Assembly: GCA_044361365.1 (NCBI GenBank)
Contig: JBIKIW010000001.1
Location: 2,501-66,500, forward strand
Direction: 5' to 3'
Length of the DNA: 64,000 bases
Origin: Limisphaerales bacterium
GTDB taxonomy: Bacteria > Patescibacteriota > JACMRA01
The translations under genes were made by a program, and so were the position numbers. The notes beneath the pieces are model-generated. The model ran no database searches and was not told where the DNA came from. It was given only the letters and a program-made list of their open reading frames with translations. This document shows positions 17,614 to 35,959 of the stretch, piece after piece; within the stretch, counting starts at the first letter, position 1, and each line of letters opens with the position of its first letter.

Positions 17614-20600
17614 ATGCCAAAAGATCTTCACCTTTTTGATAGTTACCAAAGAAAAGTTTTGCCGATCCAGTGCAGCGAAGAAGATAAACTAAAAATTTAC
17701 GGCTGTGGTCCAACAGTATATAATTATCAGTCTATTGGAAACATGCGAGCAGTCTGGTTACCGGATACAATTTCAAAAGTTGCTAAAATTGCCGGGTACA
17801 AAACTGAGTGGGTTAGTAACATTACCGATGTTGGGCATTTGGTGGATGATGGAGACGATGGTGAAGACAAAATCGAGAAAGGTGCCAAGCGAGAGCAAAA
17901 AACCGTGGAGGAAATTATCAACTTTTATGTACAAGATTTTAAGGATCAGTGCGGGGCATTAAACTTTGATTTGCCAGCTGGAAAATACCAACCAAAAGCT
18001 ACACAATATATTGGTGAACAAATGGTTTTGGCTTTGGAGCTACTGCGAGATGGGAAAGCTTACCTGACAGATGACGGGATTTATTTTGAGAATATCCCAC
18101 CAGATACAACATCTCCCCAACCCTTGTGGAACAGAGAAACACCCCCCCAACCCCCTTCAAAGGGGGAGTACATCAAGCTTACTAGTGTTCTTGAGGATAG
18201 GGATGTGTATTCTTCTACCTTTAGCCACCCCCCCAGCCTTCAAAGGGGGAGTACAAAGTCTAGGTTAGAACTTGCTCGGGAACACAAATTAAACAAAGAA
18301 GGTTGGGATTTTGTAGTTTATAACAATAAGTTGAATAAGTTTTCTAAAGAAATGCGAAAAAACCCCACGAAAGCGGAGAAAAAGTTTTGGGATGTTGTCC
18401 GTAAAGATAAGTTGTTGGGTGAATTTACCTGGAATCGACAAAAACCTATAGATAATTTTATAGCTGATTTTTACTGTAGGGAGTTGAAAGTGGTTATTGA
18501 AATTGATGGAGGTGTGCATAATTCTGAGCAAGCCAAAGGCTACGATAATGAGAGGGATAATATCCTAAGAGGTTTAGGTTTAGAAATGCTTAGATTTACA
18601 AATGATGAAATACTAGTTAATCCAAATTCAGTTTTGGCACAAATAAATGATTGGGCTAACTTATCACCTACGAGCTTTCAAGTCGAGAATACCCCCCCCT
18701 TGAGGGGGGTTGGGGGGATGTCTCCATTAAAGGGGTTAAGCCAAATTATTGAAACGATTCAAAATCTCCAAAAAGAAAAACCAAACAAACCTTTGATAAT
18801 AACTATCGACGGGCGAGGTGGGAGTGGAAAGTCAACTTTTGCTGAAAAATTGATTGAACTAATCCCAAATTCAGCTGCAATTGAACAAGACAAATTTTTG
18901 GAATTTATGAAAGGAATGGATACCAAATCTGACTCCTGGAACCATCGAAATTTTGAATTAGATAAACAATCTTTGCAGGAAGAATTGGAAAATCACAAAG
19001 ATAAAAAAGTGATAATCCTAGAAGGCATAAAAAGTTTTGCAAATATTGAATCTGATCTAAAAATTTGGCTTGATTCTAGTCAAAAAGATAACAAACAAAG
19101 AGCTAAAAAAAGAGATGTAAAAGGTGAAGTAAATTCAGATGGTTTTGAAATATTTTGGCAGGAGTTTGAGGTACATTCTCAAAAATATATTCAGGATTTT
19201 AAACCCGAGGAAAAAGCTGATTTCATAGTTTCGATAGAAGGTGATGGGTATGAGGTAATTTCAACTGATGACACAGAACTCGAAAAAATAGTTGGTACTA
19301 TTAATCGACTCAAAAAAGATAAAGGTGATAAACCAATTATAATAGCTATTGATGGTCGAGGCGGGAGTGGAAAGTCAATTTTAAGTAAGAAAATAGCTGA
19401 AAATCTCGAGGATGTAGAAGTTTTAGAATGTGATGATTTTTTTGATTTTGAAAAGCTAGATGAAAAGGTTTTTTTCTGGGATAAAGAAAGATTTAAAACT
19501 CAAATTCTAATACCACTGACTCAAGGCAAAGAAGCTATCTTTGAAAGCAATAATTGGATAGATCAAAAACTAGTCGGTAAAATAAATAAAACTGTGCAAT
19601 CAAAAAAATTTATTATACTTGATGGTTTGTGTACTTTGCAACAAGATTTGATCAAGTATTACGATCTTAATATTTGGGTTGAAAAAGAATTAGAATCATC
19701 ACTTCATGCCGCTAAAACACGAGATGTAAATGAGAGAAATAGAGCAGAACAAGAATTTCATGAATTGTGGGATAAATGGATTCCAGTTCAAGAGAAATAT
19801 ATCAATTTAGTAAAACCCCAGGAAAAAGCTGATATTATTATTTCTACTGAAAATGGTGGGTATGAGATTTTGGAAGATAGAACCAATCAAAACTACACCG
19901 GTCGTAACATAATCCAAACCGAAAAAAGAAATCCGCATGATTTTGCTTTGTGGAAATTTGTATCCGAAAATAGTTTGCAAAAATGGAAGTTTAATCAGTT
20001 TGAAAATACTGAAGATTTGATGATTGAGATTATTCAAACCCTCGATTCTAAAGATTACGATTTACCAAATAGATGGGGTTGCCCTGGTTGGCACAGTGAG
20101 TGCGTGGCGATGATTAGTGAGATACTTGGGCATCAGAGATTTTCTGGAAAGTTTGGGCATCTTCTCAAAGATAATTTGTATGAAATCGACATTCATACCG
20201 GCGGCGAAGATCATATCGATATTCACCACAAAAATGAAATTTTACAATCCAAAGCTCTTGGTTTTCATTTGTCCAAATATTGGGTTCACAACAAATTTGT
20301 GCTGGTTGATGCTAAAAAAATGAGTAAGAGTTTGGGGAATGTTTTTTTGGTTAAAGGCGATTTTAAAACAACAGGTTTTTATAGTTTCCAAAACCCGCCA
20401 ACTCAAGATTTTAGCGAGGAGTTTAAACAGCAGATTATTAAGAAATATAAGGAGCTGAAAATTTATGATTTGAATAAAAATCTAAGTGAAGTAGAAATAC
20501 CCCGTCAGTCTATGACTGCCACCCCTTCGCAAGCAAAGGGGAATATGGAGTTTGAAGAACAGTCCAAAAAAGAAAGTGTATTTTGGCAGAATTTTAGTTT

Positions 20601-21120
20601 CGACCCCATTGCTTACAGGTTGATGCTAATGGAACATCACTACACTGAACAGATGAATTTTACCTGGGAAAAGCTTTGGCAAAGCCAAATGAGACTCTGG
20701 AATTTGCGAAAAGATGCTGCTAGAATTATCAGTTTTGCAACTCAAAATAAAACTAAACCAGAAACCGATCAAAAACAAATTCAAATACTTTTGGACTATC
20801 TTTTAGATAATTTAGATACACCAAAATTTGTGGAAAAATACCAGAACTTTTTGGGAGATGTTATAAATGAAATTGCAAAAAATAATGTTTTAAACCCTAA
20901 AAATTTGGGAGCAATTCTATTTTGGGAAAAGGAACTTTTGAAGTTAAATTTTAATCCAAAAATATCACCTGAAGTTATTGAGTTAATCGAGCAAAGGCAA
21001 GAGGCAAAAATTGCCAAAGATTATCAAAAATCTGATCAAATTAGAGTTCAAATTCAGGCTCAAAATCTGCAAGTTGATGATTATAGTTGGGGTAGTGGAG
21101 TTTGGAAGAGATTAAATTAA
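17614..21120 (+). CDS. cysS: Cysteinyl-tRNA synthetase with two large in-frame insertions
   Basis: CysRS motifs: YGCGPTVYNY, RNPHDFALWK, GCPGWHSEC, DIHTGGEDHIDIHHKNE, KKMSKSLGN, MEHHYTEQMNF. The ORF is interrupted in frame at 18097-19890 (598 codons) and at about 20365-20592 (76 codons). Confidence 0.9.
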   Translation: MPKDLHLFDSYQRKVLPIQCSEEDKLKIYGCGPTVYNYQSIGNMRAVWLPDTISKVAKIAGYKTEWVSNITDVGHLVDDGDDGEDKIEKGAKREQKTVEEIINFYVQDFKDQCGALNFDLPAGKYQPKATQYIGEQMVLALELLRDGKAYLTDDGIYFENIPPDTTSPQPLWNRETPPQPPSKGEYIKLTSVLEDRDVYSSTFSHPPSLQRGSTKSRLELAREHKLNKEGWDFVVYNNKLNKFSKEMRKNPTKAEKKFWDVVRKDKLLGEFTWNRQKPIDNFIADFYCRELKVVIEIDGGVHNSEQAKGYDNERDNILRGLGLEMLRFTNDEILVNPNSVLAQINDWANLSPTSFQVENTPPLRGVGGMSPLKGLSQIIETIQNLQKEKPNKPLIITIDGRGGSGKSTFAEKLIELIPNSAAIEQDKFLEFMKGMDTKSDSWNHRNFELDKQSLQEELENHKDKKVIILEGIKSFANIESDLKIWLDSSQKDNKQRAKKRDVKGEVNSDGFEIFWQEFEVHSQKYIQDFKPEEKADFIVSIEGDGYEVISTDDTELEKIVGTINRLKKDKGDKPIIIAIDGRGGSGKSILSKKIAENLEDVEVLECDDFFDFEKLDEKVFFWDKERFKTQILIPLTQGKEAIFESNNWIDQKLVGKINKTVQSKKFIILDGLCTLQQDLIKYYDLNIWVEKELESSLHAAKTRDVNERNRAEQEFHELWDKWIPVQEKYINLVKPQEKADIIISTENGGYEILEDRTNQNYTGRNIIQTEKRNPHDFALWKFVSENSLQKWKFNQFENTEDLMIEIIQTLDSKDYDLPNRWGCPGWHSECVAMISEILGHQRFSGKFGHLLKDNLYEIDIHTGGEDHIDIHHKNEILQSKALGFHLSKYWVHNKFVLVDAKKMSKSLGNVFLVKGDFKTTGFYSFQNPPTQDFSEEFKQQIIKKYKELKIYDLNKNLSEVEIPRQSMTATPSQAKGNMEFEEQSKKESVFWQNFSFDPIAYRLMLMEHHYTEQMNFTWEKLWQSQMRLWNLRKDAARIISFATQNKTKPETDQKQIQILLDYLLDNLDTPKFVEKYQNFLGDVINEIAKNNVLNPKNLGAILFWEKELLKLNFNPKISPEVIELIEQRQEAKIAKDYQKSDQIRVQIQAQNLQVDDYSWGSGVWKRLN
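18140..18168 (+). repeat. Left terminal inverted repeat with internal hairpin cccccttcaaaggggg
   Basis: Read directly from the sequence; the hairpin spans 18151-18166. Confidence 0.7.
18226..18255 (+). repeat. Second, direct partial copy of the left repeat
   Basis: The 19-mer ccttcaaagggggagtaca is shared between 18154-18172 and 18237-18255. Confidence 0.7.
18691..18720 (-). repeat. Right terminal inverted repeat
   Basis: The sequence accccccccttgaggggggttggggggatg is the reverse-complement match to 18140-18168. Confidence 0.7.
20497..20544 (+). repeat. GC-rich two-hairpin element (about 48 nt), copy 1, in frame inside cysS
   Basis: ataCCCCGTCAGTCtatGACTGCCACCCCTTcgcaagcAAAGGGGAAt. The same architecture occurs at 34125-34172 and 34260-34310 on the opposite strand. 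Confidence 0.7.
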
Positions 21121-33532: not shown

Positions 33533-35386
33533 TTATTCTAATTCAAACATTGACTCAACTTCAGACTCCCACTCATCATGTATATTTTTAGCTACAGGTG
33601 ATGGAATTTGATCTTTATAAACTGGCACATTTGGATTAGAAAAACCTTCTGGAATTTGCTTATAAACTTCATAAAAAATCTTTTTCCCTGCAACCAAATT
33701 CAAATTATTTTCAGGTTCATCTTGAGTAATTTTTGGAGGTGGGGTTGGAGTGTCAAAATCTTGAATTTCGTACGATTCTTTAGGTGGTTCTTCGTAGCTA
33801 ATATCTTGAAAATTTTCTGGTTCAAATTTTGGATTTGGAGCTGTTGATTTTGCCCGAATTATATTTTCAATTTGAGGTGCAAATTTTAATTCAGAAGTTA
33901 AAAATTCTTTCAAAAAGTTTTGCAAAGTTGTCGACTTTAATTGGCTCAAAAAAAGATTGGTTGTGACACTAAAAATTGCCTTGTTATTTTCTACACTTTC
34001 TAACCTCAAATCGTGACCCAACATTTTTAAAATCGTAGGTGCGTTCGAAGCCTTCAACATCTTAGAAAAAAGTGAATTTGAGTTTGTATTTAAATCACTT
34101 TCTAGGTTGGAATTTTGAGTAAGCAATTCCCCTTTTGAAAGGGGTGGCACCGAAGGTGACGGGGCATGTTTGCCACTTTCAGATTCAACTAAATCAACTT
34201 TTTTTATGCTCGATAAATTTTCTTTTGATTCACTTTCATGCTTGGAACCTGGAGTCAATAATTCCCCTTTTTCAAAAGGGTTGGCAGCGATAGCTGACGG
34301 GGTATGTTTGTCGTTTTGAGAATAAGCAAAATCAACTTTTCTTACCTCTGAATTTACTACAGTAGATCTGTTCTCAACTGGCTTTTTTTTTACACTAACC
34401 ATTCCTTCTTTCTGATTCAAATTTGCCTGCAAAAGTGCAATTGTTTGAGCTATCGAAGTCACTGGTAATTTCCAACTTAAAACCTCAGCCGTAGTCGGAA
34501 CCAGGCTACCATAATCTGAATTTCCAGACAAAGTTTGGTCTAATAAAAATTCTAAAAATTGTCCCAAAAAAGTTTCCGCATCAAAGTTAATTTGAGTTAG
34601 TTTTTGTAAAAAGTTTTTATCTAAATTTTGACTTACAATTTTATCTGCAATTTCTACCAAAAAAGTTTCTGGAATTACACCCAAAATCTCAGCAGTTTTT
34701 TCAACCGAAAATTCATCCAAATTATAACTAGAAACTGTCTCCATGAGGTTGATTGCATCGCGTTGACTTCCTTCAGCTCTTTTAGCAATCAGCTCCAAAC
34801 TTTCTGTGTCAATTTTCAAAGTTTCAGCCTTAGCTATGAATTGTAATCTACCTACAATATTTTGAATTGTATGAGACGAAAGTGGAAGCTTGGTAAGCCT
34901 AGAAAGTACAGTAGGTAAAAGCTTTTCGGGATTGGTGGTGGCAAGCAAAAATACTACATGTTTTGGTGGCTCTTCTAGGGTTTTGAGTAATGCACTCATG
35001 GCACTTTTGGACAGCATGTGTACCTCGTCGATGATATAGATTTTGTACTTACCCGAAAGTGCTGGGGTGCTGGCGTTTTCAATAAGTTGTCTGATGTTAT
35101 CAATCCCGGTATTTGAGGCTGCATCTAGCTCGATAATATCAATTTTGGCTTCAGGGTAAGTTTCTACCTGGTTCAAAAGATTCGCAAAAATCCTGGCTAG
35201 TGTGGTTTTTCCAACTCCTCGTGAACCCGAAAAAAGATAGGCTTGTTTGATCAAATTTTTGGCGATTGCATTTTGCAAAACTGATTTTACTAACTCCTGA
35301 CCAACCACATCTTCAAAAGACTGGGGGCGATACTTGTTGTACCATGACATATACTTATTTCTTGGGTTAAAAATAACTTTAGTCAA
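33533..35386 (-). CDS. dnaX: DNA polymerase III gamma/tau subunit
   Basis: YRPQSFEDVVGQ, GSRGVGKTT, IYIIDEVHMLS, LLKTLEEPP, SRL. The linker region contains the tandem repeat listed below. Confidence 0.9.
   Translation of the reverse strand: MTKVIFNPRNKYMSWYNKYRPQSFEDVVGQELVKSVLQNAIAKNLIKQAYLFSGSRGVGKTTLARIFANLLNQVETYPEAKIDIIELDAASNTGIDNIRQLIENASTPALSGKYKIYIIDEVHMLSKSAMSALLKTLEEPPKHVVFLLATTNPEKLLPTVLSRLTKLPLSSHTIQNIVGRLQFIAKAETLKIDTESLELIAKRAEGSQRDAINLMETVSSYNLDEFSVEKTAEILGVIPETFLVEIADKIVSQNLDKNFLQKLTQINFDAETFLGQFLEFLLDQTLSGNSDYGSLVPTTAEVLSWKLPVTSIAQTIALLQANLNQKEGMVSVKKKPVENRSTVVNSEVRKVDFAYSQNDKHTPSAIAANPFEKGELLTPGSKHESESKENLSSIKKVDLVESESGKHAPSPSVPPLSKGELLTQNSNLESDLNTNSNSLFSKMLKASNAPTILKMLGHDLRLESVENNKAIFSVTTNLFLSQLKSTTLQNFLKEFLTSELKFAPQIENIIRAKSTAPNPKFEPENFQDISYEEPPKESYEIQDFDTPTPPPKITQDEPENNLNLVAGKKIFYEVYKQIPEGFSNPNVPVYKDQIPSPVAKNIHDEWESEVESMFELE
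34125..34172 (-). repeat. GC-rich two-hairpin element, copy 2 (inside dnaX)
   Basis: Sense (minus) strand: caaacatgCCCCGTCACCttcGGTGCCACCCCTTtcaaAAGGGGAAtt, translated as KHAPSPSVPPLSKGEL. Confidence 0.7.
34260..34310 (-). repeat. GC-rich two-hairpin element, copy 3 (inside dnaX, 135 nt from copy 2)
   Basis: Sense (minus) strand: caaacataCCCCGTCAGCtatcGCTGCCAACCCTTttgaaAAAGGGGAAtt, translated as KHTPSAIAANPFEKGEL. Confidence 0.7.
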
Positions 35387-35471: not shown

Positions 35472-35959
35472 GGGGATGACCTAGTTTTGACAGTTGGATA
35501 TTGGCTAAAACATACTAGATAGTTTTGCTTATTTTTTCTATAAAAACGAGTAGCACTTTTAAATGCAAACAATTCAACTTCTGCCTTTGAGAAAATCGGA
35601 GGACGTATCGCACAAGCTTTAGGTCTCGAGATCACTCAGGGCGTACCCCAAACAGCAATCGCCTAGTTTAGTTGCCACTTATTGGCAGAATATCCCTCCG
35701 GATAAAATCTAAACATGGGGTACACAATTACTTTTATATTGGATTTGGCGTAAGAGTAAATTGTAGAAAAACAACACAAATTCCTTGGTTAAGTTGTTAG
35801 CGGGCTAACCGAGTACAATGCTAACAGTGTGCTTAAAACTTTTTTGATTTGGTTTGAGATCACACTTAAAACAATTAAATCAAATATGCGTCTAGTTTGA
35901 AAAAGTGTTTTAGACCCAAATCCAATTGGACGGGGGTGCAACTCCCCCCATCTCCACCA
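35472..35959 (+). ncRNA. ssrA: tmRNA (SsrA)
   Basis: The 5' GGGGATG pairs with the 3' CATCTCC, including the G3-U pair, followed by ACCA. The T-arm-like GGACGGGGGTGCAACTCCCCCC precedes it. A candidate tag frame starts at GCA 35565. The length of 488 nt is at the long end for tmRNA. Confidence 0.85.

Follow-up and report, generated by a model that had tools for sequence, protein, structure and literature searches.

An in-frame DUF559 nuclease segment in a patescibacterial cysS gene resembles a selfish cassette bounded by a dispersed GC-rich hairpin repeat

How does a nuclease domain come to lie, in frame and between inverted GC-rich repeats, inside the gene for an essential enzyme? The question is raised by the cysS gene (17614..21120, plus strand) in a 64,000-nucleotide stretch of contig JBIKIW010000001.1 (positions 2,501 to 66,500; assembly GCA_044361365.1) from a Limisphaerales bacterium placed by GTDB in Patescibacteriota. 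This whole stretch is referred to below as the window, and its features are given in window positions. The relatives of its proteins likewise indicate a Patescibacteria (CPR) bacterium. The gene encodes a cysteinyl-tRNA synthetase (CysRS) of 1168 aa (Pfam tRNA-synt_1e, E 2.7e-50), the catalytic domain of which is split between DDGIYFE and NYTGRNIIQTEKRNPHDFALWKF by a composite insert of ~590 aa in the connective-peptide region. A first-pass annotation, made from the letters alone, had proposed that the DUF559 endonuclease module within this insert is a small mobile element with termini of its own. We consider it probable that a selfish nuclease cassette, U–DUF559–U, where U is a dispersed GC-rich hairpin repeat, has a copy here, and that this cassette, tolerated in frame in cysS, is organized either like a REPtron (a repetitive extragenic palindromic, or REP, sequence together with its nuclease gene) or like a homing endonuclease.

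The segment without a counterpart in the closest CysRS relatives, defined by DNA alignment and protein comparison, spans 18091..18745 (+) and holds the DUF559 cassette with its flanking repeats; its left boundary is sharp and its right one approximate. At its centre is the core of a DUF559 (Vsr-like PD-(D/E)xK) nuclease (18298..18663, +). The Pfam match (18328-18648, aa 239-345 of CysRS) covers profile positions 2-105 of 109 with an E-value of 3e-31, so that the domain bracketed by the repeats is complete, as had been stated. The left arm is a short-form U in reverse-complement orientation (rcU; 18136..18170, −), and the right arm a short-form U (18687..18724, +) reading C8-TTGA-G6-TT-G6-ATG. 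A repeat search paired 18136-18170 with 18690-18724 (35 nt, 86% complementary, 519 nt apart), the longest inverted repeat of cysS, and an ungapped count on the two 29-mers originally singled out reproduced their match at 25 of 29 positions. Another short-form copy in rcU orientation (18223..18255, −) repeats the left arm directly (18225-18255, 84% identity over 31 nt), and its last 19 nt are those of the first copy, the same 19-mer that had been noticed before. Two poorer copies lie further out: a degenerate, partial one in rcU orientation (ACATCTCCCCAACCCTTGTGG) at 18108..18127 (−; aligned part in the repeat search 18108-18123) and a possible degenerate one at 18725..18745 (+; TCTCCATTAAAGGGGTTAAGC, peptide SPLKG), which is a weak nhmmer match (E=44).

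The hairpin-bearing ends do stand out in this AT-rich DNA. The GC content of the window is 33%, and runs of at least seven C or G occur nowhere else in its 64 kb. The pattern C5-N4-8-G5 was found only at the two places that flank DUF559 (0.01 expected), and a 25-mer of the repeat, allowing up to three mismatches, occurs twice against an expectation of 0.00 from 100 shuffles. The reading frame is unbroken through every repeat of cysS, and conceptual translation turns the repeats into the Pro/Gly-rich linkers described at first: TPPQPPSKGE in the left arm, HPPSLQRGS in the second copy and TPPLRGVGGM in the right arm. CCC makes up 11 of the 20 Pro codons within U versus 10% in the rest of the window, and GGG 9 of the 10 Gly codons versus 13%. 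Such host-atypical codons argue for a constraint on the DNA, not on the linker peptide.

We defined U by a search for C-run/G-run hairpins in the window and in contigs of relatives, an alignment of the matches and a subsequent profile search. Two forms emerged. The short form consists of C5-8, a loop of 4-7 nt, G5-8, (C/T)T(A) and G5-7; around the window DUF559 and in a relative's contig (L001) it reads CTCCCCC-loop-GGGGG, TT, GGGGGG(G)TG. The long form comprises hairpin 1, TGG, a second hairpin, whose stem varies with compensation and whose loop is GNA, and then ACGGGGTG or ACGGGG(TG). Examples of the compensating stems are CAGTC/GACTG, AAACC/GGTTT, CACC/GGTG, CTGGC/GCCAG and AGCATC/GATGCT. 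Folding of single copies gave modest z-scores (+0.3 to −2.2); the evidence for the structure of U therefore comes from covariation across copies and not from energy. Rfam at gathering thresholds assigned the repeat to no known RNA family in the window, and in five related loci there were only spurious miRNA matches at E<=0.1. U lacks a stop codon in most frames and encodes a Pro/Gly-rich peptide, properties that would make it unusually harmless inside genes.

The window also holds three solo long-form copies, all in frame. One is in cysS itself (20494..20544, −; IPRQSMTATPSQAKGN), and two are in dnaX (open reading frame (ORF) 33533-35386, minus strand), at 34124..34170 (+; peptide HAPSPSVPPLSKGELL) and 34258..34308 (+; peptide HTPSAIAANPFEKGELL), in the variable linker of DNA polymerase III tau/gamma. 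A 79%-identical relative (P0242) has the two dnaX copies as well, one of them in decay; they are old, and no polymorphism could be read from them, this being the only close relative. The solo copy of cysS lies at the position of the right-hand repeat of a DUF559 insert in another CysRS (P0015, contig L002) and is missing from the two closest relatives; a cassette since lost may have left it behind, or it may have been there beforehand as a landing site. Elsewhere, L001 has two intergenic solo copies, and L005 has one at a fourth cysS site, the first 24 nt of which are identical to the DUF559-flanking copy of L002.

Is the pairing of DUF559 with U peculiar to this lineage? We scanned one genome per GTDB species with a DUF559 alignment (A2; a wider one, A1, was too diverse) and obtained 80 loci, the best-scoring matches of one peptide pattern. 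These are mostly cyanobacterial and also include Peribacteria, Nomurabacteria, Paceibacterota, Bacteroidota, Calditrichota and others. When the 200-nt flanks were compared for inverted repeats, the best pair of arms had a median score of 39, versus 18 for 402 shifted controls of the same geometry, and 71% of the loci exceeded the controls' 95th percentile. The arms share the window motif, C5-7 TTnnnAA G5-7 (C/T)TA G5-7 ATC, exemplified by GTCCCCCCCTTCTTAAGGGGGGCTAGGGGGGATC. A regular expression for short-form U matched in 76 of the 80 loci, at a density of 5.3 per kb within 250 nt of the domain versus 0.26 per kb beyond, a difference of about 20-fold. The DUF559–U linkage spans phyla. Other copies of the flanking repeat exist, and inverted copies of the same motif generally flank DUF559 genes in other phyla. 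The first-pass picture of a mobile element with termini of its own holds as far as the flanking repeat is concerned; it fails on private termini, since the ends belong to a dispersed, mostly solo repeat.

The cyanobacterial DUF559 gene mostly stands alone, as an ORF of ~130 aa that does not include U; only 8 of 60 right-hand copies precede the stop codon. With U mostly outside the ORF, its translation is incidental. In-frame insertion, which the first-pass annotation had put forward as a property of the element, is therefore true of the window and of some other hosts and is not the rule. Among the 80 loci, two are in-frame insertions into large hosts, PriA (L007, a Peribacteria metagenome-assembled genome (MAG)) and a type ISP restriction-modification enzyme (L042, a Calditrichota MAG). 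Several related DUF559 domains are embedded in or fused to LeuRS (P0170), TsaB (L087), IspF, an epimerase and a GNAT protein, and in L089 an in-frame DUF559 in a sugar-nucleotide enzyme has U flanks with the polarity seen in the window. Peptides encoded by U flank the domain in PriA, the type ISP enzyme, the sugar-nucleotide enzyme, TsaB, LeuRS and the IspF fusions. DUF559 relatives in other phyla often start or end with peptides encoded by U (IPPNPPLEGGE, APLPDKGGAGGGFK, IPPLKGEASASSQGDV); DNA-level inspection of L087, L089, L007 and L042 confirmed the suggestion that the Pro/Gly-rich tails of such proteins are translated repeat copies.

Whole units can be multicopy. In Tychonema bourrellyi, a 755-nt U–DUF559–U unit occurs on two scaffolds with 94% identity and unrelated flanks. 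Separately, a further small dispersed repeat, which has HIP1 ends (GCGATCGC-ACGTTTTGACTAATTCCAAAAGG-GCGATCGC; L030 2696-2739 and 3392-3432, L033 881-924 and 1595-1636), bounds this unit with a direct copy on either side and also lies solo nearby. In L047 (3381-4139), U pairs form a 198-nt tandem array, and a DUF559 ORF lies between its units. In the regular tandem U arrays of cyanobacteria (L047, L012, L082, L034), two subtypes, C5..G5-ATTTA-G5 and C7..G6-CTA-G6, alternate and point in opposite directions, and the array of Symploca has a period of 198 nt and 3.8 copies. A phage vector is not obvious, as only six DUF559 loci of this type were found in 2.9 million viral contigs.

The long form was surveyed in JGI metagenome contigs with a pattern of 22 specified bases that left the loop and second-hairpin regions free. 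At least 120 contigs (L091-L210), ranging in GC content from 0.31 to 0.66, carry it; the figures that follow are for the matches listed. With at least 700 nt required on both sides, DUF559 lies within 400 nt of 5 of 58 copies. Most copies of U are solo or in doublets and a minority flank a DUF559 gene, a share that nonetheless looks far above expectation for a gene assumed to be present a few times per genome. Of the copies, 22% are located within open frames of 600 nt or more, versus 65% of random positions. The unconstrained second-hairpin region forms a perfect stem of at least 4 bp in 59% of copies versus 6.7% of shuffles, and the free part of hairpin 1 adds at least 2 bp to its stem in 71% versus 6.7%; the hairpins of U are under selection. 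There are 59 distinct second-hairpin stems, and 78 of 125 loops (62%) are of the GNA type, mostly triloops closed by C-G (GAA 47, GTA 14 and GCA 11 of 125). C-GNA-G triloops are typical of very stable DNA mini-hairpins. Their prevalence is a hint, though only a hint, at a single-stranded DNA form of U.

What kind of protein does the cassette encode? All 13 columns that are invariant in a 28-sequence family alignment are kept in the window copy (R20, T24, E27, W31, Q48, D57, F58, E68, D70, G71, H74, D83 and R99), including the D...E-x-D...H...D catalytic residues. Among PDB entries, the family profile matches 3hrl, which is a DUF559 protein of Neisseria, with an E-value of 2e-29 (6.6e-17 for the window copy) and, with an E-value of 2e-5, 3r3p. 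The latter is the catalytic domain of I-Bth0305I, a homing endonuclease encoded in an intron. I-Bth0305I is a Vsr-like nuclease that makes double-strand breaks (PMC3239194), and DUF559 is, by profile comparison, related to it in sequence. This kinship favours the first-pass proposal that DUF559 is a selfish nuclease, of which we infer both the mobility and the nuclease activity. The window copy has no DNA-binding extension. For a PD-(D/E)xK protein of ~120 aa, the simplest mode of action would be as a dimer, with either a palindrome or a branched or hairpin structure as substrate; both are available in U. A role in a defence system was also considered and rejected: PADLOC returned only weak partial matches, to DpdF and a methyl-directed restriction enzyme.

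The results so far bear on an alternative in which U is a REP-like or MITE-like (miniature inverted-repeat transposable element) family moved by some other enzyme, of RAYT (REP-associated tyrosine transposase) or IS200 type, or by replication slippage, and DUF559 genes merely gather in clusters of U or are directed to them, as passengers or as a free-standing homing endonuclease for which U arrays are safe harbours and which has no part in the spread of U. It would account for the predominance of solo copies, for arrays and doublets such as the 198-nt array of L047 into which the DUF559 ORF has seemingly been inserted, and for the occurrence of the flanking pair in both polarities. RAYT-like domains with hairpins of their own are, moreover, found in frame in cysS of relatives. 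However, the RAYT-like insert examined (L088) is flanked by a different hairpin (GGGCTTTAGCCC) and not by U, and a passive passenger would not be expected to have U at 76 of 80 loci, from Patescibacteria to cyanobacteria and Calditrichota, with a 20-fold local enrichment. In addition, a survey of CGTC-tagged repeats, which resemble long-form U, found no dedicated transposase adjacent to them (PMC3733652). We regard this alternative as unlikely, although it is the strongest of those considered.

We next turn to cysS itself, where orthologues proved polymorphic for the module. The closest CysRS relatives, P0002 (L003; 83% identity) and P0003 (L006; 66%), read YFE|SGEE and lack the DUF559 segment; in the DNA alignment with them, a gap of ~650 nt starts sharply after TTTTGAG. 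Other relatives carry DUF559 at two different sites. In P0005 (L001) it lies just before NRWGxPGWHSEC, a second cysS site, and in P0015 (L002) after KMSKS, a third site, which is also that of the solo copy in the window. Both inserts are surrounded by inverted copies of U (L001 11350-11387 and 11830-11865; L002 9342-9392 and 9878-9925). The polarity of the pair varies, being rcU, rcU–DUF559–U in the window and U–DUF559–rcU in L001 and L002, and the presence of both polarities fits a REP/REPtron-like organization better than classical terminal inverted repeats. The insertions at the three sites are independent. The three embedded domains are mutually only 33-36% identical, and the copy in P0015 has lost invariant residues (H74Y and R99H), a pattern to be expected if separate invasions had been followed by decay. 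A target specific to cysS, another idea raised at first, finds no support in the three different cysS sites and the many other host genes.

A candidate target-site duplication was likewise rejected. GAGAATATCCCACC (18088-18101) resembles GAGAATACCCCCCC (18684-18697), and L047 shows a similar arrangement with AACTCAAACTACCC, but the pattern is unsupported across 82 loci. Duplication of the 5′ flank together with the C-run had suggested insertion after the C-run of a pre-existing repeat, which we do not claim.

The CysRS of this lineage is a mosaic: at the same or other sites it may contain one kinase, a kinase and a HAD domain, a HAD domain, NUDIX, α/β hydrolase and HAD domains, or DUF218, and the connective-peptide region is evidently tolerant of insertions. 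In the window, DUF559 is followed within the insert by two tandem uridine-kinase-like P-loop domains (Pfam; ~18769-19864, aa ~386-750). The longest direct repeat between these domains is 72 nt, 74% identical, and U does not flank them. Similar kinase domains are embedded in serine hydroxymethyltransferase on other contigs (P0021, P0022). A further cysS (P0013; L088 6740-6770 and 7285-7310; also P0016 and P0017) has an in-frame Y1_Tnp (RAYT-like) domain between inverted GGGCTTTAGCCC hairpins, with an inverted-repeat score of 32 versus a background of ~18. This insert looks like a REPtron translated within an essential enzyme.

Such a mosaic could suggest that DUF559 is simply an accessory domain of CysRS, accreted like the P-loop kinase, HAD, NUDIX, α/β hydrolase and DUF218 domains of this lineage and retained with its nuclease residues intact, with Pro/Gly-rich linkers whose symmetry arises from complementary CCN and GGN codons. 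The closest relatives do without the insert, however, and others have it at different sites. The use of CCC and GGG codons departs strongly from that of the host, and the similarity between repeats exceeds that of Pro/Gly codons and extends to non-coding copies around free-standing DUF559 genes of other phyla. Solo copies are found in dnaX and in intergenic DNA, and the repeats are already seen at the same frequency in non-coding DNA. Accretion is accordingly very improbable as the origin of this structure.

Poorer still is the case for an intein, an intron-like element or a bypassed segment whose two ends are paired by the inverted repeat. In RNA, base pairing between the 35-nt arms could loop out the DUF559 segment, and introns and inteins are known to harbour Vsr-like homing endonucleases (PMC3239194). 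Against this, the Pfam matches of the ORF include no intein or Hint domain, the junctions YFE|NIPP and KGLS|QII lack the Cys/Ser and His-Asn-Cys/Ser/Thr residues of inteins, and Rfam intron families have no match in the window. All host-embedded copies keep the reading frame, which argues against splicing, as upkeep of the frame is needed only if the insert is translated. We think that there is hardly any chance of this explanation being correct. An assembly chimera or sequencing artefact, conceivable because G/C homopolymer runs invite errors and contigs can be wrongly joined at repeats, may for practical purposes be set aside, as the identical 1168-aa protein is recorded from independent JGI and Logan assemblies (a cluster with 20 member sequences), the frame is intact through the repeats, and analogous architectures occur in many unrelated assemblies.

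How might the U–DUF559–U cassette, the reading that we prefer, operate? DUF559 would nick or cut at U, which it would recognize in the form of a palindromic duplex or in that of a hairpin, extruded or single-stranded. Host recombination, repair synthesis or template switching between copies of U could then duplicate U, and occasionally the whole unit, elsewhere. In compact, gene-dense genomes only insertions that keep the frame at tolerant sites would survive within genes. The window cassette may have inserted into a permissive surface region of CysRS, or been kept there, without loss of frame, and it would be translated as part of the enzyme.

Several points weigh against this interpretation. 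No cleavage, excision or insertion event has been observed. Target-site duplications, whose comparison had been proposed at the outset, could not be established: there is neither a clean duplication nor a precise empty site, with comparators only 66-83% identical and the right junction ambiguous, and in a systematic probe of 82 loci, nearly everything seen on either side was a full repeat copy. A PD-(D/E)xK nuclease alone is incapable of strand transfer, so that host recombination or replication must be invoked. Both flanking polarities occur, which a transposase with defined ends would not obviously tolerate. The dnaX solo copies in common with the 79%-identical relative suggest that at least some copies are old fossils and not active elements, and only one copy of DUF559 is present within the 64-kb window. 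Finally, the largely cyanobacterial, single-pattern origin of the 80 loci limits how far the linkage can be generalized across DUF559 subfamilies.

Comparison with known systems helps to place the cassette. REPtrons, composed of REP or REPIN repeats and a RAYT, similarly have one nuclease gene between inverted short GC-rich hairpin repeats (PMC3116915; PMC3733652). As with U, far more copies lie dispersed elsewhere in the genome, solo or as doublets, clustered and in either orientation, and the arrangement recurs in many phyla; a parallel case is E. coli, with one copy of ycjD, a DUF559 gene, and ~18 places occupied by its repeat. In contrast, RAYT is a Y1/HUH tyrosine transposase, whereas the enzyme here is of the PD-(D/E)xK, Vsr-like type and the window ORF has no Y1_Tnp match. 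The GTAG foot is missing from the window copies (some cyanobacterial copies of U read G6-TAG-G6, not a conserved head), DUF559 is often multicopy in cyanobacteria, and the unit occurs in frame inside essential genes.

The long form invites a second comparison. Copies found independently of the search pattern read TGG-stem-loop-stem-(G)ACGGGG, that is, CGTC...CCA on the other strand. The second hairpin of the long form on that strand, CCC-CGTC-stem-loop-stem-CCA-CCCC, has what may correspond to the CGTC head and CCA tail described for CGTC-tagged REPs (including Rickettsia RPEs and Neisseria dRS3), a likeness by description only. The CGTC superfamily occurs inside genes, apparently without a dedicated transposase (PMC3733652), and in-frame palindromic repeats are known from Rickettsia (PMC10969869). 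CGTC-tagged REPs lie in frame inside genes, often those of replication or repair, as does U in cysS and dnaX. U differs in its extra C-run/G-run hairpin, and the window short form is without the CGTC hairpin. The second-hairpin stems of U are mostly 3-7 bp with GNA triloops, whereas those of CGTC-tagged REPs are 8-9 bp, start with A/T and have loops of 4-5 nt.

DUF559 shares its catalytic fold and motif with EDxHD homing endonucleases such as I-Bth0305I and with Vsr, and the window copy retains the E, D, H and D. The selfish behaviour of EDxHD mobile nuclease genes is established (PMC3239194). Unlike them, DUF559 has no NUMOD or helix-turn-helix (HTH) extension, lies outside introns and inteins, is flanked by repeats and has no single conserved host target; in the window, no Dcm methylase was seen in association with it. 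Like the cassette, inteins and mobile introns invade conserved housekeeping genes non-destructively and carry a nuclease, but the DUF559 insert is without splicing machinery and is seemingly just tolerated as extra protein. Classical terminal-inverted-repeat transposons differ from U–DUF559–U, which has no fixed repeat polarity and for which no consistent target-site duplication was found.

Does E. coli, then, contain a comparable arrangement? NCBIfam names the family for YcjD, and the window domain matches PRK09767 (YcjD) with an E-value of 5e-19, below the equivalog cut-off. In K-12, ycjD (b1289) ends inside a copy of a GC-rich repeat, and an inverted copy follows 154 nt later (L090 7217-7241 and 7396-7420), with a partial duplicate of the 3′ end of ycjD between the two (L090 7195-7420). 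The distal repeat, CCCCTCGCCCCTCTGGGGAGAGGG-TTA-GGGTGAGGGG, has the layout of U: a hairpin, TTA and a G-rich run. This 56-nt repeat, which we take to be the classical 'Box C', occupies a median of 18 places per genome in 5426 E. coli genomes, 62% of which have ycjD as a single-copy gene and 38% of which lack it. The sapF-fabI interval of strain Nissle was tried as an empty site and discarded; it holds other genes, so the element boundaries are unreadable there.

Taken together, these observations point to a widespread and apparently undescribed selfish element that combines a repeat with a nuclease; a literature search, itself incomplete, found no description of a DUF559–repeat association. 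A bolder version has DUF559 as the dedicated nuclease of a RAYT-independent repeat system that extends over most bacterial phyla, with the C-run/G-run repeats, including the CGTC/CCA form and the ~20-copy ycjD repeat, as its non-autonomous offspring and with units that colonize even essential genes without splicing, through translation as an additional domain with Pro/Gly linkers. We offer it tentatively, judging its chances to be somewhat short of even. DUF559 is a very large family without an assigned function that includes E. coli YcjD, and the link to U offers the hypothesis that it is the nuclease of the repeat. If that is true, orphan repeats of the CGTC/RPE (Rickettsia palindromic element) type, reported without a mobilizing enzyme (PMC3733652), may gain one; there is a substantial chance that this is the missing enzyme–repeat pairing for a large class of orphan repeats. 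The cassette would further illustrate how a selfish nuclease can reside in an essential gene without an intron or intein, by means of frame-neutral, linker-like ends. Recurrent 'PPLxxGG / SPLEGW...DGV' peptides in predicted proteins could be explained as translated repeats, and some of the domain insertions in Patescibacteria proteins might be accounted for in the same way.

Two further features of the window may be mentioned. It contains four tRNA genes and a tmRNA gene (35472-35959; Rfam RF00023, 72.7 bits), all of them ordinary. The class I HIGH signature of its CysRS is SIGN (YNYQSIGNMRAVW; window 17700-17730, aa 36-42), a variant common to P0002, P0005 and P0015, while other relatives have HIGN; the KMSKS motif and the zinc ligands look intact.

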